A DNA stretch of 64,000 bases from positions 44,092 through 108,091 of the forward strand of contig JAWSUI010000003.1 in NCBI GenBank assembly GCA_033551855.1. Direction: 5' to 3'. Shown piece after piece: positions 1,822 to 31,861 of this stretch (the first letter of the stretch is position 1; every line of letters starts with the position of its first letter). The notes beneath the pieces are model-generated. The model was not told where the DNA came from. It was given only the letters and a program-made list of their open reading frames with translations, and did no database searches. A program made the position numbers and the translations under genes. This DNA is from Deferrisomatales bacterium. Lineage in GTDB: Bacteria > Desulfobacterota > Deferrisomatia > Deferrisomatales > JACRMM01.

Positions 1822-3918
1822 CTACGTTTCGCCCCGCAATCCGCGGCCATTCGAAGAGGTGTCCCCGCGGACCTCGATACGGCGGGCTTCACCCGTTTGC
1901 GCCGGAAGCGGCCGGTCGGTCGATACGGCACGGGGCGGGTCTTCGGGCCTCCCGGACCCCGGCCCAAGATCAAGGTGCGGGTTCTGGGGAACCCCATCGA
2001 CCCCGCCTTCCTCGAAGAACGACGCCACGTCCTCCCGGCGGCGGGTGCGGGGGAAGGGGGGGAGGCTGTCCAGGAGGAACCGGCCGTAGGACCTCTCGAG
2101 GAGCCGCCGGTCGAGGATCGCCACCACGCCCCGATCGGTGGTGCGGCGGAGGAGCCTCCCCACCCCCTGCCGGAGCGCCATGGCGGCAGCCGGGAGTTGG
2201 TAGGAGGAGAAGGGGGACTCACCCAGGGCCCTGGCCCGCTCGATCCGCGCCTCGACGAGGGGCTCGGTGGGAGTGGCGAACGGGAGCTTGTCGATGATGA
2301 CGGCGGAGAGGGCCTCCCCGGGCACGTCGACCCCTTCCCAGAAGGACTGGGCCCCCAGGAGCACCGAGTGGGTGTCGCGCCGGAAGGCCTCCAGGAGCAC
2401 CTCCCGGGGGGCCTGCCCCTGGACCAGGAGGGGGTAGGGAACCCGTGCGGCAAGGACCTCGGCCACGGCGCGCAGCACCCGGTGAGAGGTGAACAGGCAA
2501 AAGGCCCGGCCGCCCGTGGCCCGGAGCAGGGTGGCGATCTCCTCGGCCGCCGTCTCGGGGAAGGATGGGTTCCCCGGATCGGGCATCCGGGCGGGCACGT
2601 AGAGCAGCCCCTGCCGGGCGAAGTCGAAGGGGCTCGGGACCGCCACCTCCCGGGCGCCCTCCGGAATTCCCAGGCGGGCGGACAGATAGGCGAAGCTCCC
2701 CCCCGCCCGCAGCGTCGCCGAGGTGAGGACCACCGGCAACGGGCCCGAGAAGACCCTCGCCTGCAGGTGGGTGCCGATCTCCACCGGGGCGGCGTGGAGG
2801 GTGGCGGCGCGCCCCCGGGACGCGACCCAGCGCACCTCGCCCGCTTCGGGTTCCGTGGCGAAGCGGGCCAGGTCCTCTCGCAACTCCCGGCTGCGCCGGA
2901 AGAGGGCCTCCCACTCCTGACTCGCCGCCTGCCGCGGTGCCAGGCGGTCGATCCAGTGCGCCAGGGTATCGAGGAGTTCCGCCAGGGCCTCCCGGGCCTC
3001 CCCTTCCAGGGTGCCCCGCAACCGCAGGGGGACCTCGCCCCGCGGGAGGCTCGACCACAGCCTGTCGGAGGCCTCGGCTACAGCAGAGAGCGCCTGGGCC
3101 AGGGGGCCGTCGCTGCCGCCCAGGGCCCCGGCGGCGTCGCGGGTGAAGTCCGCCAAACGGTGGGAGCCCACGCGGGACCCGAAGTATTGGGTCGCAACCG
3201 GCTCCAGGTGGTGCGCCTCGTCGAAGACCACCGCCTCGTAGCGGGGCAGCACTTCCCCCGCCGAGGAGGAGCGCACGGCGAGGTCGGCGAAAAAGAGGTG
3301 GTGGTTGACCACGACCACCTGGGCCCGCTGGGCGGCGCGGCGGTGGGCACCCAGGTGGCACGGTTCCTCCCGGGGGCACTTCGCGCCCCAGCACGTCTCG
3401 GAGGTGGAGCAGATCTCCCGCCAGGGGCCGAAGTCGTCGGGAAGGTCGGCGAGCTCCGCCCGGTCCCCGGTGCGGGTCGCCCCGGCCCACGCCTCGAGGC
3501 GGGCGTACAGACGTGCCTCGGCGGCGAAGCGGAAGAGGGGCTGCGCCCGGAACCTCTCGAAGCGCCGCAGGCACAGGTAGTTCTGGCGTCCCTTGAGGAG
3601 GGCGACGGGAACCGAGCGCCCCAGGGCGGTGGCCAGGAGCGGGACGTCCTTTTGCAGGATCTGGGACTGGAGGGTCTTGGTGGCCGTGCTGACCACGACC
3701 TTCTTCCCCCCCAGGAGTGCCGGCACAAGGTAGGCCAGCGTCTTTCCGGTGCCCGTGCCGGCCTCCGCGAGAAGCACCCCGCCCTCCTGGAGGGTGCCGT
3801 ACACGGCTTGTGCCATGGCCGCCTGCCCGGGCCGGGCCTCGTAGCCCGGCAGACACCGAGCGAGGGGCCCGGCCGGACCGAAAAACCCCTGGACCCCCTC
3901 CCCGCCTCGGCTCGTCAC
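1822..3918 (-). CDS. dinG: DinG/XPD-family ATP-dependent DNA helicase with Fe-S domain
   Basis: Walker A AGTGTGKT, a DEAH box (VFDEAHHLE) and a 4-Cys cluster region (CSTSETCWGAKCPREEPC). Start set at GTG 3916-3918, just before the conserved LPGYEARPGQ. The start is uncertain because the ORF-track extension overlaps the PHP gene. Confidence 0.8.
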   Translation of the reverse strand: MTSRGGEGVQGFFGPAGPLARCLPGYEARPGQAAMAQAVYGTLQEGGVLLAEAGTGTGKTLAYLVPALLGGKKVVVSTATKTLQSQILQKDVPLLATALGRSVPVALLKGRQNYLCLRRFERFRAQPLFRFAAEARLYARLEAWAGATRTGDRAELADLPDDFGPWREICSTSETCWGAKCPREEPCHLGAHRRAAQRAQVVVVNHHLFFADLAVRSSSAGEVLPRYEAVVFDEAHHLEPVATQYFGSRVGSHRLADFTRDAAGALGGSDGPLAQALSAVAEASDRLWSSLPRGEVPLRLRGTLEGEAREALAELLDTLAHWIDRLAPRQAASQEWEALFRRSRELREDLARFATEPEAGEVRWVASRGRAATLHAAPVEIGTHLQARVFSGPLPVVLTSATLRAGGSFAYLSARLGIPEGAREVAVPSPFDFARQGLLYVPARMPDPGNPSFPETAAEEIATLLRATGGRAFCLFTSHRVLRAVAEVLAARVPYPLLVQGQAPREVLLEAFRRDTHSVLLGAQSFWEGVDVPGEALSAVIIDKLPFATPTEPLVEARIERARALGESPFSSYQLPAAAMALRQGVGRLLRRTTDRGVVAILDRRLLERSYGRFLLDSLPPFPRTRRREDVASFFEEGGVDGVPQNPHLDLGPGSGRPEDPPRAVSTDRPLPAQTGEARRIEVRGDTSSNGRGLRGET

Positions 3919-4983: not shown

Positions 4984-5166
4984 TCAGCCACCGGGGGACT
5001 CCTCCAGGTGGGTCACCCGATCCCACGGGATCTCCAGCATGCCGGTGGGAGAGCGCAGCACCAGCGCCTCCTCGCCCATCTCCACCACGATGCCTCGGTA
5101 CTCCACTCCAGAGGCCGTTACCCGCACCTGCGTACCCCGCAGCCTGCGCCACTCCGTCACGCGCAC
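4984..5166 (-). CDS. small hypothetical protein (60 aa) at the distal end of the T2SS operon
   Basis: GTG start preceded by GGGGAGGGGAG. Coding-like codon usage. No recognisable motif. Confidence 0.4.
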   Translation of the reverse strand: MRVTEWRRLRGTQVRVTASGVEYRGIVVEMGEEALVLRSPTGMLEIPWDRVTHLEESPGG

Positions 5167-5233
5167 CTCCCCTCCCCGGTCGGTTTCCCTTGGGCCCTGC
5201 CAACGGGTGACCGCGGAGCTTCCGCCCGGGCCG

Positions 5234-6157
5234 TCACTCCTCGATCCAGTCCACGAGCTCCACGGTGCGTTGGGCCCGGTCGCGCTGCAGCACCGCTCGG
5301 GCGATCCGCACCACCGGGTTCTGCGCCGCGGCCGGCACGTCCGCCGCCAGGAGGACCCGGAACCGGGCGCTCTCCACTTTCAGGTTCTGGCTCACGGCCG
5401 CGAAGTTCGCGACCCCGGAAAACGCGGCGTGGGTGCGGAGATCCCCAACCCGCTCCGCGTGCTGCTCCCCCAGCTCCTCGTAGAGCAGCTCGGCCTCGTC
5501 CCGCCGGATGGCCTCGTGGAGGCTCAGCAGGACCGGTACCGTCGCGGTGTTGACGTTGATGCCCCTGTCCGACCGGATGTCCACGTGGGGCAGGAGGCCG
5601 TGGAGCACCTCCCACGTGTACCCCTCCACCCGGCCCAAGTCCTCCAGGTGGTCCAAAGGCGCGTTGGGCACGGTGAACTCCGGGTTGATCTCGTAGGGGC
5701 CCTCCTGGTCCTCGTCCATCCAGTCCACAAGGGCGTCCACGAGGTCCGCGGGAGCGGCACCCTCCAGCTCCAGGGCGTCGAGCAGCCGCCGGTAGGCCGC
5801 GACCTGGGTCGGGACGGCCCTGCCGCGAGCATCGACGAGCGACCCCAGGGGAAACCTTCCATCCAGGTCTTCGACCGAGACGGACAGGGTTCCCTCCCCC
5901 AAGGGGACGGGGGGAATCGGCTGACTCCACAGCTCCGCCCGGTGGTCCACCGCGCTCTCTTCGGCATCCGCGAGGAGGAACGCCGAGGCCACCGTGACCC
6001 CGGAGCGCAGCAGCGCGTGGGCCTGCAAGGCATCGCGCAGGTTGACCGAGGACCGGAGCTTCAGCCGCGCCTCCCGCTGGAATTCGACCACCAGCACGGC
6101 CAGGAGGCTGATGAGGAGCACCACGAGAAGGAGCGCCGCCCCGCGCTGCCCCCTCAC
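5234..6157 (-). CDS. gspK: type II secretion minor pseudopilin GspK
   Basis: N-terminal hydrophobic helix (GAALLLVVLLISLLAVL) and a large GspK-like body. GTG start overlaps the gspJ stop (GTGA at 6154-6157). Confidence 0.8.
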   Translation of the reverse strand: MRGQRGAALLLVVLLISLLAVLVVEFQREARLKLRSSVNLRDALQAHALLRSGVTVASAFLLADAEESAVDHRAELWSQPIPPVPLGEGTLSVSVEDLDGRFPLGSLVDARGRAVPTQVAAYRRLLDALELEGAAPADLVDALVDWMDEDQEGPYEINPEFTVPNAPLDHLEDLGRVEGYTWEVLHGLLPHVDIRSDRGINVNTATVPVLLSLHEAIRRDEAELLYEELGEQHAERVGDLRTHAAFSGVANFAAVSQNLKVESARFRVLLAADVPAAAQNPVVRIARAVLQRDRAQRTVELVDWIEE

Positions 6158-6783
6158 GACGGCCCCCTCCGTGCTCGGTAGACGGGGGTCGAGGTGCGGA
6201 GGACCCGCTCCTCCTCGCCCTCCCCCCACGCGATCTCGACCGACACCGCGAGGGGCAGCAGGGGCTCCGCGTCCCGACGGCCGGTGTCCCAGCCGTCCAC
6301 CCAGTCCGTCCCGTCGTAACAGAGGACCTCGAAGCGCGAGACCCCGGGGAGGATCTCGTAGGAGACCCCGCCCTCTTCCGGGTCCCCGTCCAGGTCACGG
6401 GACTCTCGCCGGCGCAGGCGCAGCTGGCCCTCCCGGTCCCGCTCCACGAGGTAGCCCACCTCGGCCTCTCCCCCCGGCAGGGAGCCCGGCAGGGGGCTGA
6501 GCCGCGTGACGAAGGAGAGGGTGGACAGCCCGTCCGGCCCCCGATCCACATGGAAGCCGGTCGCCTGTGCACGGAAGGGGGTGGTCGTGGTGTGGAACGC
6601 CGCAGCGAGCTCGGTCGCCAAACGGTCGAGCACCATCGCGGCGGCGTGGACCTCACGGGTCTGGGCGTTCGACAGGTTCCGGGAGCGGGCGGCTCCCGAG
6701 TACGCGCCCTGGACGAGGCTGAGCACCAACGCCAGCAGCGCCAGCGCCAGGAGCACCTCCAGAAGGGTGAATCCCCGCCTCAA
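6154..6783 (-). CDS. gspJ: type II secretion minor pseudopilin GspJ
   Basis: Prepilin leader RRG|FTLLEVLLALALL. TTG start at 6781-6783 overlaps the gspI stop (TTGA). Confidence 0.75.
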   Translation of the reverse strand: MRRGFTLLEVLLALALLALVLSLVQGAYSGAARSRNLSNAQTREVHAAAMVLDRLATELAAAFHTTTTPFRAQATGFHVDRGPDGLSTLSFVTRLSPLPGSLPGGEAEVGYLVERDREGQLRLRRRESRDLDGDPEEGGVSYEILPGVSRFEVLCYDGTDWVDGWDTGRRDAEPLLPLAVSVEIAWGEGEEERVLRTSTPVYRARRGPS

Positions 6784-7193
6784 CGCTCCCCCTCCACGGC
6801 GTAGTAGACGAGCTCCGTCGAGGCCCGGTCCCCCCGCTCGGGCCAGAAAACGATCAGGCGGACCAGGCGGACACCCTCGAACTCGGTGGTCTCCACCCGC
6901 CTCTCCCAAGCGTAGTCGGGAAACGCCTCCCCGAAGTCACCGTCGTCCTGCCCCAGGTCGGGAAAGCCCTCCACCTCCGTCTCGGTGAGGAGCTCCCGGG
7001 TCAGGAGGGTCGCGGTCATGAGCCGCCGCGCCTGGGCTTCCTGGCGGGCCGCCGAGGTGTGGGCCGAGAGGAGGACCGTGAAGGCGGATCCCAGAATGGC
7101 CAGGGCGAGGAGAAGCTCCAGGAAGCTGAAGCCGCCGCGGAGAAGGCGGGCCCTCGCCCTGCGGCAAGACCTAATCCGGATCCACACGGCCAT
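6780..7193 (-). CDS. gspI: type II secretion minor pseudopilin GspI
   Basis: Prepilin-type N-terminus GG|FSFLELLLALAILG. Size and operon position fit GspI. ATG at 7193 (GTG at 7187 is an alternative). Confidence 0.75.
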   Translation of the reverse strand: MAVWIRIRSCRRARARLLRGGFSFLELLLALAILGSAFTVLLSAHTSAARQEAQARRLMTATLLTRELLTETEVEGFPDLGQDDGDFGEAFPDYAWERRVETTEFEGVRLVRLIVFWPERGDRASTELVYYAVEGER

Positions 7194-7676
7194 CGAAGAT
7201 CCCGACCTGCCCCGGCAGGGAGCGGATCACCACGGTGTAGAGGTTGCCGTCCCCGTCTTCGAGGTAGACCCAGCTGGGGGTCGCGTACCCCTGGGGGAGA
7301 AAATGGGTCAAGGCCCTTCCCCGGCTCACGACGCCCTCCACCGTGGTCTCCACTTCCCGAAAACGAAGGCCCTCGGGAAGGCGAACGAGCCCCGCCGGCA
7401 GGCCGGGGGACGGGAGGTAGTCACGCTCCTCCTCGTCCCACTGCCCCGCCCGATAGGTCTGTTCCTCGAAGTCGTAGATCAGGGCTAGGCTTTTTTTTTG
7501 AACGCGGCTTCTTCGTGGAGAGCCTGGGCTGTGGCGGCGAGACGCCGCAGGGCTTGGTTCTTTTGCCCCTCGCCCAGCCGGGGGAGGCGGGGAAGGAGCA
7601 CCGAGAGCGCCACCGCCAGGATGAGGAGGACGACCGCCAACTCCACCAGGGTGAAGCCGCGGCGCGAGGGGGTCAC
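7171..7676 (-). CDS. gspH: type II secretion pseudopilin GspH, reading frame interrupted at an A9 run (needs a -1 shift, or A10)
   Basis: The N-terminal piece (GFTLVELAVVLLILA) ends FKKKA* at 7485. The C-terminal domain continues in the -1 frame as SLALIYDFEEQTY... down to 7171. GTG start overlaps the gspG stop (GTGA at 7673-7676). Confidence 0.65.
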
Positions 7677-8119
7677 TCCAGATCCCAGTTGGCGATGTCG
7701 GCGAACCTCCCCTCGCCGCCCGGCTCGCCGTCCGCTCCGTAGGAGAGCAGGTCGAAGTCCCCGTGGTTGCCGGGGGAGAGATAGACGTAAGGGTTGCCCC
7801 AGGGGTCCCTCGGGACCACAGACTTCTCCAGATAGCCGCCCGCCCTCCACCGAGTCGGCACCCGGCCGACCGTGGGCTCGCGCACCAGGGCCTCGAGCCC
7901 CTGCTCGGTGTCCGGGTAGAACCCGTTGTCCACCTCGAATTGGCGCAGCGCGTCCTCCAACACCCGGATCTGGATCCGGGCCGCCGTAATCTTGGCATCC
8001 TCGCCTCGACCGAACAGCCGCGGCATCACCAAGCCGGCCAAGAGACCGAGGATCGTCAAGACCACCAGGAGCTCAATGAGGGTGAAGCCGGCATCGCGGC
8101 GACGTCTGTTCACGGGCAT
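7673..8119 (-). CDS. gspG: type II secretion major pseudopilin GspG
   Basis: Canonical leader and helix RRRRDAG|FTLIELLVVLTILGLL. C-terminal GspG-like domain (PWGNPYVY). Confidence 0.92.
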   Translation of the reverse strand: MPVNRRRRDAGFTLIELLVVLTILGLLAGLVMPRLFGRGEDAKITAARIQIRVLEDALRQFEVDNGFYPDTEQGLEALVREPTVGRVPTRWRAGGYLEKSVVPRDPWGNPYVYLSPGNHGDFDLLSYGADGEPGGEGRFADIANWDLE

Positions 8120-8147
8120 TCTCGGGATCGGGAGGAGGGGTGGTGGA

Positions 8148-9368
8148 TCAACCCACGAGTTGACTCATCTCGAAAATGGGCAGGAGGATGGCAAGAACGA
8201 CGAAACCGACCGCCAATCCCATGAACAGGATCATAAGGGGTTCCAACAGGGACGTCAAGGTAGCCACCGAGGCTTCCACCTGGCCCTGAAAGGCCTCGGA
8301 CACTCTGAGCAGCAGGTCGTCGAGAGCCCCGCTCTCTTCCCCCACACCCACCATCTGGCACATCACCGAGGGGAACTCCCCCGTGGCCCGCAAGGCGTCC
8401 CGGAGACTGCGCCCTTCCCGCACGTCGTCCCGCACCCGCTCCACCGCCCGCTCCAGCACCGAGTTCCCGAGCACCGCCCGGGAGATGTCCAACGCGGTGA
8501 GAAGGGGCACCCCGCCGCTCAGGAGCGTGCCCAATGTCTTGGAAAAACGGCTCACGCCGACCAGCCGGACGAATCGTCCAAAGGCCGGGGTGCGCAGCAC
8601 CAGCCCGTCGATGACGAGTCGCCCCGCCGGGGTGCGGCCGTAGCGGCGCAGTGCGAAGAAGAGGAGAAGGAGCACCGGCAGGGCGACCCACCCGTACTCC
8701 TGCAGAAAGCTGCTCGTGGCCAGGAGCATGCGGGTAGGCGCAGGCAGCGCCCTGCGCATGTCGGCAAAGATATCCGTCACCCGGGGCACCACGCTGGTCA
8801 GGAGGAACCAGAGGATCCCCGCCCCCAACAGCGTCATCAGGGCGGGATAGACCAGGGCTGCCTGCAGCCGCTGCCGAAAGGCTACCGATGCCTCGAGGAA
8901 ATCCGCCAGTCGGCTGAGGACGAGGGGCAGGGTTCCGCTTGCTTCCCCGGAGCGGACCATGTTCCGGTAGATCTCAGGAAACGAACGGGAGTGCTCCCCC
9001 AGGACGTCGTGGAAGGCCCGCCCCTCGTTCACCCCCTCGCGGACCTGGGACAGCAGGCGGCTCATGCGGGGGCTGTCGGTCTGCTCCAGCAGTGCCCCGA
9101 GGGCCGCCACCAGGGGCAAGCCGGCCCCCAGGAGGGTGGCGAGCTGCCGGGTGAGGACGGCGAGCTCCCCCACCCGAACCCCGCGAGAGAGTCTCGGCCT
9201 CACGCCCCGATCGGTCGTCGCCTCCGCCTTGGCCATCTCGGTCACGCGCGTGGCGAACACCCCCTGCCGCTTGAGCTTCGCCCGCACGGCCCGGGGGCCG
9301 TCCCCGTCCACGATCCCGCGGGCGGCGCGGCCCCGGGAGTCCAGTCCCTCATACTCGAAGACGGCCAA
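8148..9368 (-). CDS. gspF: type II secretion inner-membrane platform protein GspF
   Basis: 406 aa with a duplicated GspF domain and hydrophobic segments. TTG start preceded by GGGGGAG. Confidence 0.9.
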   Translation of the reverse strand: MAVFEYEGLDSRGRAARGIVDGDGPRAVRAKLKRQGVFATRVTEMAKAEATTDRGVRPRLSRGVRVGELAVLTRQLATLLGAGLPLVAALGALLEQTDSPRMSRLLSQVREGVNEGRAFHDVLGEHSRSFPEIYRNMVRSGEASGTLPLVLSRLADFLEASVAFRQRLQAALVYPALMTLLGAGILWFLLTSVVPRVTDIFADMRRALPAPTRMLLATSSFLQEYGWVALPVLLLLFFALRRYGRTPAGRLVIDGLVLRTPAFGRFVRLVGVSRFSKTLGTLLSGGVPLLTALDISRAVLGNSVLERAVERVRDDVREGRSLRDALRATGEFPSVMCQMVGVGEESGALDDLLLRVSEAFQGQVEASVATLTSLLEPLMILFMGLAVGFVVLAILLPIFEMSQLVG

Positions 9369-9378
9369 GGCACTCCCC

Positions 9379-11085
9379 CTAGATCGCCTCTTCCTGGGTG
9401 ACCCGGAGCACCTCCTCGGCGCTGGTGATCCCCCGCAGGAGCTTCCGGGTGCCGTCGTCCCGCAGGGTCAGCATCCCCCCTCGCCGCGCTTCCTCCTTGA
9501 TGGTCGCCGAGTCCGCCCCCTTCATGATGAGGTTGCGGATCCGCTCGTCCACCGTCAGCAGCTCGTAGATCCCGGAACGGCCTCGGTACCCGGTCTGCAT
9601 GCAGTGGGGACACCCCTTGGCGCGGTACAGGTGCCCTTCGGGGAGATCCGAAGCGTGAAGGCCGAGCTCCGCCAGTCCTTCGGGGGGGGGCAAATAGGGC
9701 TCGCGGCACGCCGGGCACAACACCCGGACGAGGCGTTGGGCGAGGATCGCCAGCACGGAAGACGACACCAGGAAGGGCTCGACCCCCATGTCCACCAGCC
9801 GGGTCACCGCCCCGGCCGCGTCGTTGGTGTGGAGGGTGGACAACACCAGGTGACCGGTGAGGCTCGCCTGGATGGCGATCTCGGCGGTCTCTCCGTCGCG
9901 GATCTCCCCCACCATGATCACGTCCGGGTCCTGCCGTAGGATCGACCGGAGGCCAGCAGCGAAGGTCAGGGCGATCTTGGGGTTGACGTGGATCTGGCCG
10001 ATCCCCCGGAGCTGGTACTCGATGGGGTCCTCGACGGTAATGATATTGATGTCCTCGGAGTTGATCCGCGAGAGGGCGGCATACAGGGTGGTGGTCTTCC
10101 CGGAACCCGTCGGCCCGGTGACCAGGAGAATCCCGTAGGGGCGGGTGATGAGCTTCTTGAACGCCTCGAGACGCTCGCCGCCGAGTCCCAACTCCTCCAG
10201 GTCCAGGAGCACCGCGGACTTGTCCAGCAGGCGCATCACCACCCGCTCGCCGTAGGCCGTCGGGAGCACCGAGACGCGGATGTCGATGTCCTTTCCCGCG
10301 ATCTTGATGCGGATCCGGCCGTCCTGGGGCAGGCGCTTCTCGGCGATGTCGAGGCCCGCCATGACCTTGATCCGGCTGGTGATCGCCGCCTGCAGGGTCT
10401 TCGGGGGAGTGAGAACCGGGTAGAGCACACCGTCGATGCGGTAGCGGATCTGGAGCTCCCGCTCGAAGGCCTCCACGTGAATGTCGCTGGCCCGGTCCTT
10501 CACCGCCTGGAACATGATCCCGTTGACCAGCCGGATGATGGGTGCCTCGTCGGAGGCGTCCAGGAGGTCCTTGGGCTCCTCGATCTCGTGGGCCAGGGCA
10601 GAAAGCCCCACGTCGCTGAGCCCCTCCATCAGGTCCCCGGCCCGGTCGGAGCCCAGCTCGTACACCCGGTTGATGGCCTGGAGAATCCGGTCCGCCGGTG
10701 CCAGGCACGGTGACACCGGCCGTCCCAGGAGCACTCGCAGATCGTGGAGGACTCGCAGGTCCTCCCCGTCGGCGACCGCGACCAGAACCCGGCCGTTCTC
10801 CTCCCCCAGCGGGAGCACCCGGTGGCGCTTGGCGAACTGGATCGGGACGAGGCGAACCACGTCCTCCGGGATCTCGGCCGGCCGGATCTCGGGGGCGACG
10901 GGTAAACCGAAAGCCTCCGCCTGTGCTTGGAGGAGGGCTTCGGAGCCCACCAGCCCCAAGGAGGAAAGGGCCTCCGACAGGCTGCCGCCCCGCTCGGCCT
11001 GCCCGGCCTGCCCGCGGGCAAGCCCCTCCTCGTCCAGCAGGCCCTTCCCCAAGAGGAGCTCGCCCAGGCCCCTTCGCGCCGTCAC
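9379..11085 (-). CDS. gspE: type II secretion ATPase GspE
   Basis: Walker A GPTGSGKTT, Asp/His boxes and a tetracysteine motif (CPAC...CPHC). GTG start overlaps the gspD stop (GTGA at 11082-11085). Confidence 0.92.
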   Translation of the reverse strand: MTARRGLGELLLGKGLLDEEGLARGQAGQAERGGSLSEALSSLGLVGSEALLQAQAEAFGLPVAPEIRPAEIPEDVVRLVPIQFAKRHRVLPLGEENGRVLVAVADGEDLRVLHDLRVLLGRPVSPCLAPADRILQAINRVYELGSDRAGDLMEGLSDVGLSALAHEIEEPKDLLDASDEAPIIRLVNGIMFQAVKDRASDIHVEAFERELQIRYRIDGVLYPVLTPPKTLQAAITSRIKVMAGLDIAEKRLPQDGRIRIKIAGKDIDIRVSVLPTAYGERVVMRLLDKSAVLLDLEELGLGGERLEAFKKLITRPYGILLVTGPTGSGKTTTLYAALSRINSEDINIITVEDPIEYQLRGIGQIHVNPKIALTFAAGLRSILRQDPDVIMVGEIRDGETAEIAIQASLTGHLVLSTLHTNDAAGAVTRLVDMGVEPFLVSSSVLAILAQRLVRVLCPACREPYLPPPEGLAELGLHASDLPEGHLYRAKGCPHCMQTGYRGRSGIYELLTVDERIRNLIMKGADSATIKEEARRGGMLTLRDDGTRKLLRGITSAEEVLRVTQEEAI

Positions 11086-13199
11086 GGCTGACCGGCCTCC
11101 CCCTTGAGACGGTCCAGATAGTGCTCCAGCTTCTGGGCGGGCTGCAGGGGAGGCGCTCCCGTGGGGGTCACCTGCTCTTCGTACAGGAAGCGCTTGTCCT
11201 CGGTCACCTCCTCGAGCTTCGCCATGCTCGTCACGATGCGCGGCGTGAGGAAGATCAGCAGGTTCTTCTTCCGGGTCTCCTGACGGGAGCTCCGGAAGAG
11301 GTACCCCAGGAGCGGAAGATCGCCCAGGCACGGCACGGAGGACGCGGTCATCTGGGTGTCGTCGCTCACCAGCCCGCCGATCACAACGGTGGTCTGGTCC
11401 TGGACCACGACCGTGGTCCTCGCCGACCGCCGCGTGGTGGACGGGGCGTTGATGCTTCCGCCGGTGGCCGTGCTCAGGATCTGGCTCGTCTCCTGGAAGA
11501 GGCGGAGCCGGACGAAGTTGTCCTCGTTGATCTGGGGGGTGAAGCGCAACGTCAACCCCACATCGCGGTACTCGAAGGTGGAGATGGGGTTCCCCTGGGA
11601 GTCGAACTTCTCGCTGGTCTTGAAGGGGATGTTGTCCGAGACGACGATCTCGGCCTCCTCGTTGTCCGTGGTGATCAGGTGGGGGGAGCTCAGCACGTTG
11701 ACGTCCGAGTCGGTCTGGAGCGCTCTGAGCAGGGCCCCGACGTTGAGGAACTCTCTCCCGGCGAAGGTCACGGTGCCCTTGATCACCCCGAGGGCCAGCC
11801 CCTGGGGGACGGCCAGGGGCCCCCCGACCGCCACGTTGCCGATCGTGCCGAAATTGGTGGAGGCGAAGCCGGTAAGGTCCCCTCCGCGGGGATCGTCGGT
11901 GGTGCGCCACTCGACACCGAGCTCCAAGGCCTTCTCGAAGCTCATCTCGACGATCAAGGCGTCGACCAGCACCTGGGGCCGGCGGATATCGAGCTTCTCG
12001 ATGACGTCGCGCAGGATCTCGTAGTCCTGGGGGCTGGCGATGATCACCAGGGAGTTGGTGGTCTTGTCGGCGGTAATCTGGACGGGCTCCTCGAACTCCA
12101 CGCTCGCCTCGGTCGCCCCGGTGGCCCGGGCCGCGGGTTGGGGCTGGCCCGGCCGCGGCCGGGTGCCCGCGGACTTGGAGATGGCGGTGAGGACGGAGGC
12201 CACGTTCTCCGCGTCGGCGTACTTCAGATAGTAGACGTTGATCTTCCCGGAACCCTTCGGGATCTCCACGTCCAACGCCTCGATCATCACCTTGATGTCC
12301 GCCATGGTCTGGGGGTCGGAGATCACGATCAGGGCATTGGTCCGCGAGTCGGGGATGATCTTCACCGCCGTCGCCTCGGCCTGCACCTGCTGGACCTGGG
12401 CCTGTCCCCTGGCCGGGGCCGCCCGGCGCACCTGTCGGGTCCGGTCCGCGACGACCTGGGCCAGGTTCTTCGCCATGATCTCTGCCGAGGCGTAGCGCAT
12501 GGGGATGATCTCGAGGACCGTGTCCACCGTCTCGACGTCCAGGGAACGGATAATCTCCAGGAGCCGCTCGATGTTGGCGTGGGAGTCGATCACGATGAGC
12601 GTGTTCGTGGCCGGATAGGCGATGACCGGGCTGCCCTTGGTCACCAGAGGGGAGATCACCTGCACGATGCCGTTTACATCGACGTACTGGAGCGGGATGA
12701 TGCGCGTCACCACGCGATCCCCCGGAGGTGCCGAGTCCCGGACCGTCTCCACCGTGGTCTGGGATGCCAGCTGGGTCTGGACGATCTTGTAGACCCTACC
12801 CGACGGGACGATCGTGAAGTTCTTGATGTTGAGCATGGTCTGGAAGATCTCGTAGGCCTCGTCCACGGTCACCTGCAGGGGGCTGATCAGGGTGACCTTG
12901 CCCCACTGGCGCTGGTCGGCGTCGAGAATGAAGCTCTTCCCCGTCACCTCCGAGATGAACTGCACGACCGCGTTGAGCTCCGCGTCCTTGAAGTTCAGAG
13001 TGATGCGCCGGTCCGCCTGCCGGGTGGCCGCGGGCCGGGGCGGGCGCGCGGGAGCCCCCGGGGAGACCGACGGTTCCGGAGGCGCAGTCACCTCCGGCGC
13101 AACGGCGGGGCCGTCCTCGACGGTCTGGGCCGACGGCGGCGTCGGCGCGAGGAGCAGGCAGGTGATGATCAGGCCGATGATCGGGCGCAGGAATCGCAC
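11082..13199 (-). CDS. gspD: type II secretion secretin GspD
   Basis: Signal peptide, N-domains and a C-terminal secretin domain. GTG at 13197-13199 is preceded by AAGGAGGA. Confidence 0.9.
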   Translation of the reverse strand: MRFLRPIIGLIITCLLLAPTPPSAQTVEDGPAVAPEVTAPPEPSVSPGAPARPPRPAATRQADRRITLNFKDAELNAVVQFISEVTGKSFILDADQRQWGKVTLISPLQVTVDEAYEIFQTMLNIKNFTIVPSGRVYKIVQTQLASQTTVETVRDSAPPGDRVVTRIIPLQYVDVNGIVQVISPLVTKGSPVIAYPATNTLIVIDSHANIERLLEIIRSLDVETVDTVLEIIPMRYASAEIMAKNLAQVVADRTRQVRRAAPARGQAQVQQVQAEATAVKIIPDSRTNALIVISDPQTMADIKVMIEALDVEIPKGSGKINVYYLKYADAENVASVLTAISKSAGTRPRPGQPQPAARATGATEASVEFEEPVQITADKTTNSLVIIASPQDYEILRDVIEKLDIRRPQVLVDALIVEMSFEKALELGVEWRTTDDPRGGDLTGFASTNFGTIGNVAVGGPLAVPQGLALGVIKGTVTFAGREFLNVGALLRALQTDSDVNVLSSPHLITTDNEEAEIVVSDNIPFKTSEKFDSQGNPISTFEYRDVGLTLRFTPQINEDNFVRLRLFQETSQILSTATGGSINAPSTTRRSARTTVVVQDQTTVVIGGLVSDDTQMTASSVPCLGDLPLLGYLFRSSRQETRKKNLLIFLTPRIVTSMAKLEEVTEDKRFLYEEQVTPTGAPPLQPAQKLEHYLDRLKGEAGQP

Positions 13200-13262
13200 C
13201 GTCGGTCCTCCTTCTGGGTATCGTGGGATTCCGCCCTGCACCGGGCGTCGACCGGCGGAAAG

Positions 13263-14195
13263 CTATCGGATCTCGTAGTTGAAGGTCCGGTTTTCGTTGC
13301 GACGCACGAGGTCGATCTGGATCGACGTCTCCTCTCTCAGGGCCTGGTAGGCCTGGAAGGCCTGCTCCGGCCCCTCGAGCTCGATCCCGTTCACGCGCTT
13401 CAGGACGTCGCCGTTTTGCAGCCCGATACGGGCAAACAGGCTTCCCGGCCGGATGGCGAAGACCTTGAAGCCGTCCGGTTGGCCGTCGGCGAAGTTGGGC
13501 ACGACCCGAATCTGGGTCATGAGCTGGTTCAGGTTGGCGCCGGCCTCCTCGATCTCTCGGCTGTCGATGAGCCAGTTGCTCTCGTCCACCTGCCTCACGG
13601 TCTCCGCTGCCGGGGCGGGCGGGGGTACCGGCTGCGCCCGGGCCGCGGCCGGCTGCCGGCCCCGGGCCGGTGCGGGCTGGGCGGTCTCCGGAGGGTACAG
13701 GAGGACCTCCTCCATCGCGCCCGCTCGGTCCACGAGAATCCGGTCCGACCGGACTTCGGCCAGGCGCGCGGCGGGGGCCACCTCCTCGTCGACACGGACG
13801 AGCTTGATCTCGTTTCCCGACTGGATCAACGCGAACGATCGGCCGCCCTCCACCACCGCCGTGCCGAACAGGGTGATGTTGAGCGGAGTCCGCGGGGCCG
13901 GAGAGGGAACCGCCTGACCCGCGGCGGCGCCGGGACCCTGAGCCTCGGAGGGCTCCGGCCTTGCCGGCTTGGGGTTGGCATTGAAGACGTTCCGATCCTG
14001 GATCACCAGGAAATCCCCCAGCCGCTCCCCTGCGGCCACCTCGGCGCGAGGCGCCTCCTGGGATGCCGTCGCGGTCTCGGCCACCCACAGACGCTTGGCG
14101 AGGAGGACGCTGGCGAGGCGCGCCGAGAGGAAGGCCGCTCCGGCCAGGAAGAGCAGAGTAAGGACCCAGAAATACTTCAGAATCTGGTCACGCAT
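13263..14195 (-). CDS. gspC: type II secretion protein GspC with C-terminal PDZ domain
   Basis: N-terminal TM helix, a Pro/Ala-rich linker and a PDZ-like end (GSLFARIGLQNGDVLKRVNG). Sits directly upstream of gspD. Confidence 0.75.
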   Translation of the reverse strand: MRDQILKYFWVLTLLFLAGAAFLSARLASVLLAKRLWVAETATASQEAPRAEVAAGERLGDFLVIQDRNVFNANPKPARPEPSEAQGPGAAAGQAVPSPAPRTPLNITLFGTAVVEGGRSFALIQSGNEIKLVRVDEEVAPAARLAEVRSDRILVDRAGAMEEVLLYPPETAQPAPARGRQPAAARAQPVPPPAPAAETVRQVDESNWLIDSREIEEAGANLNQLMTQIRVVPNFADGQPDGFKVFAIRPGSLFARIGLQNGDVLKRVNGIELEGPEQAFQAYQALREETSIQIDLVRRNENRTFNYEIR

Positions 14196-14338: not shown

Positions 14339-14575
14339 CTAACCTCCTCTCGCCTGCTCCTTCTCCAGTGCGTGCACGGGACAGGCGGTGCGCCACCTGC
14401 AGTATCCCTTGGGATGGGCGCAGCGGGGAGGAGAGAGGGGGATGTCCCGCGCAGCCCTTTGGCAGTGGTAGAGCTTGCCGGGGTGGCGGGCCCCAGACAG
14501 ATCCACGGTCGCGTCACCCCCGCCCGGGGGGGGAGGGTTCGCTGCGGCCAGAAAGGCGCTGTCGATGACCGTCAT
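14339..14575 (-). CDS. hypothetical Cys-rich small protein (78 aa) heading the T2SS operon
   Basis: ATG start and coding-like codons. Four Cys, including a ...CPVHA ferredoxin-like ending. Only a weak RBS. Confidence 0.35.
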   Translation of the reverse strand: MTVIDSAFLAAANPPPPGGGDATVDLSGARHPGKLYHCQRAARDIPLSPPRCAHPKGYCRWRTACPVHALEKEQARGG

Positions 14576-14664
14576 GGCGGAGCCTTCGCGGAGATTTGCC
14601 GTCGCCCCCCACCGGAGCGGCGAACCGCACCTTCGATGCGGCGGCGGGCGTGCGGTTACCGCTC

Positions 14665-14720
14665 CCCGGCCGTCCCTGGGTGGGGAAACCCGTCATCCCC
14701 CGGAAGACCCCAAGAACGGC
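14665..14720. repeat. degenerate partial copy of the 3' module of the 203-nt element
   Basis: By hand alignment about 39 of 54 positions match 30898-30950. The match includes a 16/17 block, CCCGG(C/T)CGTCCCTGGG. Confidence 0.45.
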
Positions 14721-14744: not shown

Positions 14745-14947
14745 GGTTCTTCCGCTAAACGACCGGGTGGGCCCGCCCACTCCGGCAGACGAGGCCGGAC
14801 TGCACGGTAGGTGTTCTCCCCCGCCGCGTCCGGAATCCTCGCGGCATCGCGACTCCCGAAGCGGCTGCTCACGTCGAGCGGCCGTCCGCCTACGTGGTCG
14901 GGCCCACCCGATCGTCCCTGGACACGAGGACCCGGTCATTTCCCGGA
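14745..14947. repeat. 203-nt structured non-coding element, copy A (unclassified)
   Basis: Aligns without indels to 30736-30938, with 22 substitutions. Contains a 17-nt long-range inverted repeat with one mismatch. Confidence 0.8.
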
Positions 14948-14983
14948 TGATCTCAAATTGTGGCGCTCGCCTGGGGGCACGGC

Positions 14984-16117
<1,134 letters not shown>

Positions 16118-30645: not shown

Positions 30646-30674
30646 ATTCTATGCAAAGTCACCGGGCAGGTCAA
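30646..30674 (-). promoter_or_regulatory. sigma70 promoter TTGACC-17 nt-TAGAAT for the XRE-cupin/methylmalonyl operon
   Basis: Near-consensus hexamers read on the minus strand: -35 at 30669-30674 and -10 at 30646-30651. Confidence 0.55.
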
Positions 30675-30677
30675 GAA

Positions 30678-30718
30678 GTCTTTAGCAAGAATAAAACGTC
30701 TTTAGCCCAGCTAAAAGC
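30678..30718. promoter_or_regulatory. candidate operator: GTCTTTAGC direct repeat (20-bp phasing) plus an inverted GCTAAAAGC
   Basis: Exact 9-mers at 30678-30686 and 30698-30706. A near-inverted copy at 30710-30718. Immediately upstream of the -35 in an AT-rich patch. Confidence 0.4.
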
Positions 30719-30735
30719 AACTGGCGCCGACAAGA

Positions 30736-30938
30736 GGTTCTTCCGGTAAACGACCGGGTGGGCCCGCCCCCTCCGGCGGACGATGCCGGACTGTACGGTA
30801 GGTGCGCTCCCGCGCCGCAGCCGGAATCCTCGCGGCATCGCTGCTCCCGAAACGGCTGCCCCCGTCGAGCGGCCGTCCGCCTGCGTGGCCGGGCCCACCC
30901 GGTCGTCCCTGGGCACGAGCACCCGGTCGTTTGCCGGA
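30736..30938. repeat. 203-nt structured non-coding element, copy B (unclassified)
   Basis: Indel-free alignment to 14745-14947. A perfect 17-bp long-range inverted repeat pairs 30750-30766 with 30890-30906. Confidence 0.8.
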
Positions 30939-30971
30939 AAAACCACAAGAAAGCCCCTCTGCACGAGGGGC
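30939..30971 (-). terminator. intrinsic terminator of the IclR-family gene
   Basis: Minus-strand GCCCCUC-GUGCA-GAGGGGC followed by UUUCUUGUGGUUUUU. Confidence 0.65.
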
Positions 30972-31066
30972 CTCCCATCGAGCCGAGGGGACTCGGAGTT
31001 TCACTGCGAAGACTCTTTCGGGGAATGACGGGGGTGGCGGGTACTGGACGAGCCTCTACGAAGGAC

Positions 31067-31861
31067 CTAACCCTCCTGCGACACCTCGTACCCCAGTCGG
31101 GAGGAGAGCTTGCGGCCCGCCTCCAACGCCAGGGGGGCGAGCTCGGTCTCGATCCGGTCTTCGGTGAACCGGTAGGCCGGGCCCGAGATCGACAGGCCCG
31201 CCACCACGCGGCGCGTGTAGTCCCGAACCGGAACGCCCACGCACCGGATGCCCTCGTCGTATTCCTCGTCGTCCAGGGCAAAACCCGTCTGGCGTATCCG
31301 CTCGAGCTGCTGCAACAACTGGGCTCTGTCGCTGATGGTGTGCTGGGTGTACCTCTTCATGGGGCTGTCGCTCAGAATCCGGTCCACCTCGTCGAGGGAT
31401 TCGAAGGCGATCTGGGCCTTGCCCACTGCCGAGCAGTACACGGGCAGCCCGACACCGACTCGCGAAATGACCCGGACGGGCCGAGTGGCCTCCACTACGT
31501 CCACGTATACCACCCGGTCGTCCCGAAGGACGCCCAGGTAGGACGTCTCGTTGCACCGTTCGACGATCTCCTCGAGAATGGGGCGCGCCATCTTCAACAA
31601 CCCCATGTGCTTGATGAAGACCTGCCCCAACTCCAAGACCTTCAATCCCAGCCGATAGTTGCCGGTAACCTTGTTCTGCTCCATGTAGCCGCGGCTCTCG
31701 AGGGTAGCGAGAAGCCGGAACACATTATTCTTGTGAAGCCCCAGTCGTTTGGAGAGCTCCGTCACCCCGAGCTCCGTGTCCTCGCCCCGAAATTCCTCGA
31801 GGAGATCCAGGCCGTTGGTTACCGACTGGATGATGTAGCTGGATTTCTTTCTCTTGCCCAC
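31067..31861 (-). CDS. IclR-family transcriptional regulator
   Basis: N-terminal wHTH (LGVTELSKRLGLHKNNVFRLLATLE) and a C-terminal IclR effector domain. GTG 31861 chosen; the start is uncertain. Confidence 0.85.
   Translation of the reverse strand: MGKRKKSSYIIQSVTNGLDLLEEFRGEDTELGVTELSKRLGLHKNNVFRLLATLESRGYMEQNKVTGNYRLGLKVLELGQVFIKHMGLLKMARPILEEIVERCNETSYLGVLRDDRVVYVDVVEATRPVRVISRVGVGLPVYCSAVGKAQIAFESLDEVDRILSDSPMKRYTQHTISDRAQLLQQLERIRQTGFALDDEEYDEGIRCVGVPVRDYTRRVVAGLSISGPAYRFTEDRIETELAPLALEAGRKLSSRLGYEVSQEG

Follow-up and report, generated by a model that had tools for sequence, protein, structure and literature searches.

A MITE-like repeat at two intergenic sites, one of them a demonstrable insertion, in an uncultivated Deferrisomatales-like bacterium

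Correia elements of Neisseria and the ERIC sequences of enterobacteria are repeats of 100-200 bp that occupy intergenic sites; upon co-transcription, their inverted ends form a long hairpin. They often lie beside promoters and terminators and reach hundreds of copies per genome, effects on mRNA processing have been documented for them, and Correia elements duplicate TA upon insertion. Tn3-family inverted repeats start with GGGG and end with TAAG, and REP units measure about 20-40 nt. Bacterial MITEs prefer AT-rich insertion targets and are themselves typically AT-rich, and one of their families, QMITE2 of Coxiella burnetii, combines terminal inverted repeats of 23-29 bp and direct repeats of 7-9 bp with a core of 113-145 bp (PMC10969869). 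The Tn3-derived MITEs known as TIMEs usually occur in one or two copies per genome (PMC4133298), and loss of the direct repeats through age or recombination has been documented for MITEs (PMC10969869; PMC4133298).

We analysed a window of 64,000 nt, which is the whole stretch of DNA considered here, and characterized a repeat with one copy upstream of mreB (copy A) and one between an IclR-family and an XRE-cupin gene (copy B). With a probability of about 0.8, we regard this repeat as a MITE-like, 209-bp non-coding derivative of an insertion sequence, which retains only the transposase-binding ends. Like the prokaryotic MITEs, it is shorter than 500 bp, has no transposase or other coding capacity, carries terminal inverted repeats within the 4-30 bp range, is flanked by direct repeats in its younger copy and inserts at AT-rich intergenic sites (PMC10969869). 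Its predicted stem-loop energy of -106 to -121 kcal/mol stands beside about -113 kcal/mol for the QMITE2 transcript (PMC10969869). Unlike typical MITEs, it is GC-rich (69-73%) and thereby matches its host (68% GC in the window), and it differs from QMITE2 and the other described MITEs in its 6-bp duplication, in its two copies within the window and in sequence, for which we found no similarity to any described family. TIME, with 262 bp, is of similar size, its 5- or 6-bp AT-rich target duplications are compatible with the one seen here, and most database TIMEs, like copy A, no longer have direct repeats (PMC4133298). Discounting an internal 24-nt block, the inverted ends extend over about 35-40 nt, compared to 38 bp in the Tn3 family. 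However, they do not show the GGGG...TAAG pattern, and no Tn3-family transposase is encoded nearby; we do not claim membership in the TIMEs or the Tn3 family. With Correia and ERIC sequences the repeat shares its intergenic position and hairpin-forming inverted ends, but the ends themselves differ.

A MAFFT alignment that included 100 nt of sequence to either side placed positions 14745-14947 and 30736-30938 in a gapless block of 203 nt between unrelated flanks, with similarity ending abruptly on both sides. Within this block a script counted 22 substitutions (12 transitions and 10 transversions) and no indels. A repeat search of the window reported the pair as one family (D1) with 89% identity over 203 nt, and its BLAST E-value within the window was 2e-74. 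An earlier sequence-only reading, which had aligned the copies by hand and arrived at 203 nt, 22 substitutions, no indels and about 89% identity, is thus borne out. A recount from the substitution positions also returned its split of 4/8/10 across the codon phases, and its reservation that the copies might be parts of a larger duplicated segment is answered by the unrelated flanks. The left ends it had assigned stand, but the right end lies 6 nt further out, at 30944, as defined by the inverted repeats of copy B. Judged by these repeats, the unit comprises 209 bp, a length that is applied to copy A by analogy.

Both copies have the same orientation and form direct repeats 15,991 bp apart, at two unrelated intergenic sites within the 64 kb. 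BLAST and nhmmer, the latter with a profile built from both copies, detected only these two in the window. Their divergence of 11% means that neither copy was freshly derived from the other. A template and variable repeat pair of a DGR was also considered and was rejected, as only 8 of the 22 differences fall on adenines of copy A.

The anatomy of the repeat is best seen in copy B (Table 1). Its terminal inverted repeats, 25 nt long and located at the very ends of the unit, match at 23 positions (92%), and those of copy A at 18. Their left-hand boundary is the exact point at which the similarity between A and B stops. A 24-nt block just inside the right end is common to both copies (14905-14928 in copy A), and when it is left out of the comparison, 34 of 40 positions agree between the inverted ends of copy B. 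Owing to this block, the left end is able to pair with an inner partner in a perfect 17-bp stem, ACGACCGGGTGGGCCCG; alternatively, it pairs with the outer terminal repeat. The arms of the inner repeat recur in copy A at 14759-14775 and 14899-14915 with one mismatch, and this 17-bp repeat constitutes the long stem that is present in every predicted fold. A search of the window for more occurrences of the end sequence of the element returned none.

Table 1. Coordinates of the repeat copies, their ends and the adjoining signals in the window
Feature	Position	Strand	Remarks
Copy A, 209 bp	14745..14953	+	extends 14745-14947 by 6 degenerate nt at the terminus; flanks without a matching direct repeat
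Copy A, left terminal inverted repeat	14745..14769	+	
Copy A, right terminal inverted repeat	14929..14953	-	degenerate, 18/25
mreB promoter (TTGAAC, 18-nt spacer, TAAGAT)	14984..15013	+	inferred from conservation; 30 nt from right end of copy A
XRE-cupin promoter (TTGACC, 17-nt spacer, TAGAAT)	30646..30674	-	conserved in relatives; 61 nt from left end of copy B
ACAAGA, left copy (target-site duplication)	30730..30735	+	abuts left inverted repeat
Copy B, 209 bp, better preserved copy	30736..30944	+	alignment, BLAST, nhmmer, inverted ends
Copy B, left terminal inverted repeat GGTTCTTCCGGTAAACGACCGGGTG	30736..30760	+	pairs with 30944-30920
Inner inverted repeat ACGACCGGGTGGGCCCG, left arm	30750..30766	+	17 bp, perfect; partner 30890-30906
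24-nt block, right end of copy B	30896..30919	+	repeats 11-mer core (ACGACCGGGTG on - strand)
Copy B, right terminal inverted repeat	30920..30944	-	reverse complement = GGTTTTTCCGGCAAACGACCGGGTG
ACAAGA, right copy (target-site duplication)	30945..30950	+	abuts right inverted repeat; - strand = TCTTGT of IclR terminator U-tract
IclR gene, intrinsic terminator hairpin	30948..30976	-	element inserted in U-tract

Copy B is located between the terminator of the IclR gene and the promoter of the XRE-cupin gene, and a perfect 6-bp direct repeat, ACAAGA, directly abuts both of its inverted ends. At a fixed position, such a 6-bp repeat would arise by chance in about 1 of 4096 cases, and the target is AT-rich within a window of 68% GC. 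We compared this region with five loci (L115, L116, L117, L120 and L121) from four Deferrisomatales-like organisms, in all of which the synteny of the IclR/XRE-cupin gene pair is kept. The element is absent from the intergenic region of all five, which is short and holds the IclR terminator hairpin, a TTTCTTG-type tail and the conserved promoter region. When positions 30730-30944 (the element and one ACAAGA) are taken out, the window becomes colinear with the five loci from the terminator stem and TTTCTTG tail through the promoter region, so that the orthologous empty site equals the flanks plus one target copy. Both sides of copy B are furthermore syntenic with L115, at 80-90% nucleotide identity. 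Inverted ends, 6-bp target duplication and empty orthologous site together make up a transposition signature, and copy B is therefore a demonstrable transposition insertion; this is shown for copy B only. The insertion left both adjoining signals, the IclR terminator and the XRE-cupin promoter, intact, and the end of the element on the - strand, GGTTTTT, now prolongs the T-run of the terminator.

The surroundings of copy B hold two further sequence features. Upstream of the -35 box of the XRE-cupin promoter, at about 30676-30725 and read on the - strand, the blocks CTTTAG.T..GCTAAAG, TTTTAT and TGCTAAAGA, which include a TTTAGC/GCTAAA palindrome, are conserved across all relatives and probably represent an operator for one of the two adjoining regulators. 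At a distance of about 570 nt from copy B, positions 31510-31524 within the coding region of the IclR gene match 15 nt of the element's CCACCCGGTCGTCCC exactly, including the 11-mer core, which is probably due to chance.

Copy A lies between a T2SS gspC-like gene (13263-14195, - strand) and mreB (starting at 15083, + strand). The sequence-only reading had placed both copies mostly correctly with respect to the named genes and signals. An ORF of 78 amino acids (14339-14575, - strand), for which the MAG annotation calls no gene, is situated between gspC and copy A. The first 12 residues of this ORF match the start of the YgaP-like membrane protein of relatives, and the last 45 or so match a Cys-rich protein of 55 aa that is encoded next to it in these relatives, as if a deletion had fused the ygaP-like gene to the next small gene. 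The hexamers flanking copy A, AGTCAT on the left and CAAATT on the right, are mismatched, without a target duplication. The window derives from a contig of the MAG GCA_047921355.1. MreB of the source organism is 91-92% identical to that of Deferrisoma, and 98% identical to that of the relatives that we compared upstream of mreB (L109-L114), in which the element is absent from this position. The intergenic region between the ygaP-like gene and mreB measures 194 nt in L112 versus 508 nt in the window. Homology with the relatives begins at about 14975 and is not regained before the conserved mreB promoter, which follows copy A on its right at a distance of about 30 nt; the site itself is unalignable base by base. 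With its decayed ends and no surviving duplication, copy A looks like an older or rearranged copy.

Relatives also have another gene order in the region that precedes copy A on its left. Over positions 5000-14195, compared with L111 and L112, the window has a T2SS cluster beside the small gene upstream of mreB, where these relatives encode tRNA_edit, an ATPase and other genes; this is a lineage-specific rearrangement or insertion beside copy A. Two relatives, L109 (about 700-1100) and L111 (about 9550-9950), carry a related insert of about 280 nt upstream of mreB, which includes a hairpin-like CGGGGTCCGGGA..CCCGGAGCGCAGCCCCG and has no counterpart at the same place in L112. Repeats may recurrently land in the intergenic region upstream of mreB. 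Moreover, positions 14578-14710, which stop 34 nt short of copy A on its left side, are about 65% similar to the right half of the element and end in CCGGAAGACC. This similarity gave a Smith-Waterman P of about 0.01 against mononucleotide shuffles, and nhmmer with the two-copy profile did not detect the segment at E <= 10. It may be a decayed partial third copy, although we do not claim it as such.

Searches for further copies or a parent element extended to several sequence collections. Among the matches listed (at least 99) for the 17-mer stem core ACGACCGGGTGGGCCCG in a genome collection, we saw single chance matches and no real copy by BLAST, and the pattern is too short for high-GC genomes and thus uninformative on copy number. 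Metagenomes, queried for both 12-nt stem arms at a distance of 108-138 nt, yielded two unrelated long palindromes only, and viral contigs, in which we looked for the stem core, for the left end and for two blocks of the interior, gave chance matches or none. The plasmid collection contained no match to the whole element, and at E <= 10 the left end alone produced short matches. One of them, at positions 3001-3030 of an Arthrobacter sp. NicSoilB11 plasmid (L118), comprises 30 nt in an unannotated region with 90% identity to the left end, TTCCTTTAAACGACCGGGTGGGCACGCCCC, and another, on an Azospirillum plasmid, lies inside an apparent coding sequence; we judged these plasmid matches to be chance. 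The window, the plasmids and the viral contigs yielded neither a full-length insertion sequence nor a transposase whose ends match those of the element.

The element is neither a protein-coding gene nor a described RNA, and on both points the sequence-only reading holds. None of the six frames showed a raised GC3 signal, and several contain stops. Two frames are open in A as well as in B, and their translations had no match in large protein collections, which thus contain no such element miscalled as a gene. Rfam gave no match at gathering score over the whole window, and noise only at E <= 10 around both copies. The internal complementarity that had been noted earlier is likewise real, with a predicted fold of -105.9 kcal/mol (z = -3.3) for the + strand and -120.1 kcal/mol (z = -5.05) for the - strand. 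From length conservation and complementarity, that reading had suggested either a structured RNA or a MITE- or REP-like repeat. The MITE part of this suggestion is supported by the inverted ends, the 6-bp duplication at copy B and the five empty loci, but the structured RNA part received no support.

It is unlikely that the two copies are paralogous genes that specify a small structured RNA, or else a cis-regulatory RNA, of an undescribed family. Such genes could account for the strong folding and its bias towards the - strand, which is also the strand of the gene to the left of each copy. The consensus fold computed from both sequences for the - strand has 63 pairs, and all five substitutions within pairs are wobble-compatible, a count that has to be read with the fact that the consensus drops incompatible pairs by construction. 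None of 400 random mutants with 22 substitutions folded as well as the partner copy in the A-to-B direction. In the B-to-A direction, however, the partner was not clearly better than random mutants (P = 0.17 for the + strand and 0.05 for the - strand), single-copy folds lost 7 to 13 pairs when scored on the other copy, the interior folds differ, and compensatory double changes amounted to zero in these two sequences. Moreover, we found no promoter or terminator of its own within the element, both copies are situated upstream of the neighbouring promoters and outside the transcribed leaders, and the element is absent from the orthologous positions in all relatives examined. RNA genes are not characterized by terminal inverted repeats and a target duplication. 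What the copies keep of the predicted structure is the long stem that the inverted ends themselves form at the termini. The strong hairpin predicted for the element arises from these ends as a by-product and is not evidence for an RNA function. Quite unlikely, too, is a combination of both ideas, in which a functional structured RNA (an sRNA, a terminator or an insulator module) would travel with the mobile element and be used beside the mreB and XRE-cupin promoters. If this were true, the better folding of the - strand and the wobble-only substitutions would reflect selection on the RNA and not just the inverted ends.

Other kinds of mobile DNA fit the data less well. Repeats of another intergenic class, such as REP/BIME units mobilized by a RAYT transposase, palindromes derived from IS200/IS605 or non-coding remnants of the IS110 type, would also be palindromic and intergenic, and the 30-nt match on the Arthrobacter plasmid lies 580 nt upstream of an IS110-family transposase gene. 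This match has an E-value of 0.04, ends at 30 nt and is well outside the transposase gene, so that it is probably due to chance. To our knowledge, REP, IS200/IS605-derived and IS110-derived repeats have neither a 6-bp target duplication nor terminal inverted repeats, but the element has both, and with its 209-bp unit it is not an imperfect palindrome of REP size. We consider such an origin very unlikely. Even less probable, and in fact already contradicted by the flanks of copy B, is the view that A and B bound a 16-kb composite mobile element at its two ends, or border an island in the manner of attL/attR. The common orientation of the copies, their distance of 16 kb and the deviating gene order to the left of A, with a T2SS cluster in place of tRNA_edit and other genes, might suggest this, and small Tn3-derived elements are known to mobilize DNA between two copies (PMC4133298). 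A composite element, however, would duplicate its target at the outer ends, but copy B has a 6-bp duplication of its own, and the outer flanks, AGTCAT to the left of A and ACAAGA to the right of B, differ. The synteny with L115 on both sides of copy B points to a simple insertion and not to an island border, and the interior consists of housekeeping genes (mreBCD, PBP2 and rodA) in the same order as in relatives.

The MITE-like interpretation can be turned into a possible sequence of events, which we modelled on known MITE behaviour. A DDE-type transposase, supplied by a related full-length insertion sequence elsewhere in the genome, would bind the terminal inverted repeats of about 25 nt, and probably also the repeated 11-mer ACGACCGGGTG just inside the ends. 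Mobilized in trans in this way, the element would be excised or copied and then inserted at a staggered cut in an AT-rich target, and repair of the cut would create the 6-bp duplication. The transposase and its family, the current mobility of the element and its effects on neighbouring genes are all aspects that we infer.

The repeat is a genomic parasite of an ordinary kind and not a new RNA gene. It constitutes a previously undescribed MITE family, with one demonstrable insertion and one copy that appears to be older, and adds a record of such a family for an uncultivated Deferrisomatales-like lineage. Beyond annotation and local effects, the finding has no bearing on an open question. For annotation it is of practical use, since the element upstream of mreB could be misread as an RNA gene or a regulatory element. 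Elements of this type can shift promoters and terminators and seed rearrangements, and copy B exemplifies how an insertion into the U-tract of a terminator can keep the T-run intact.
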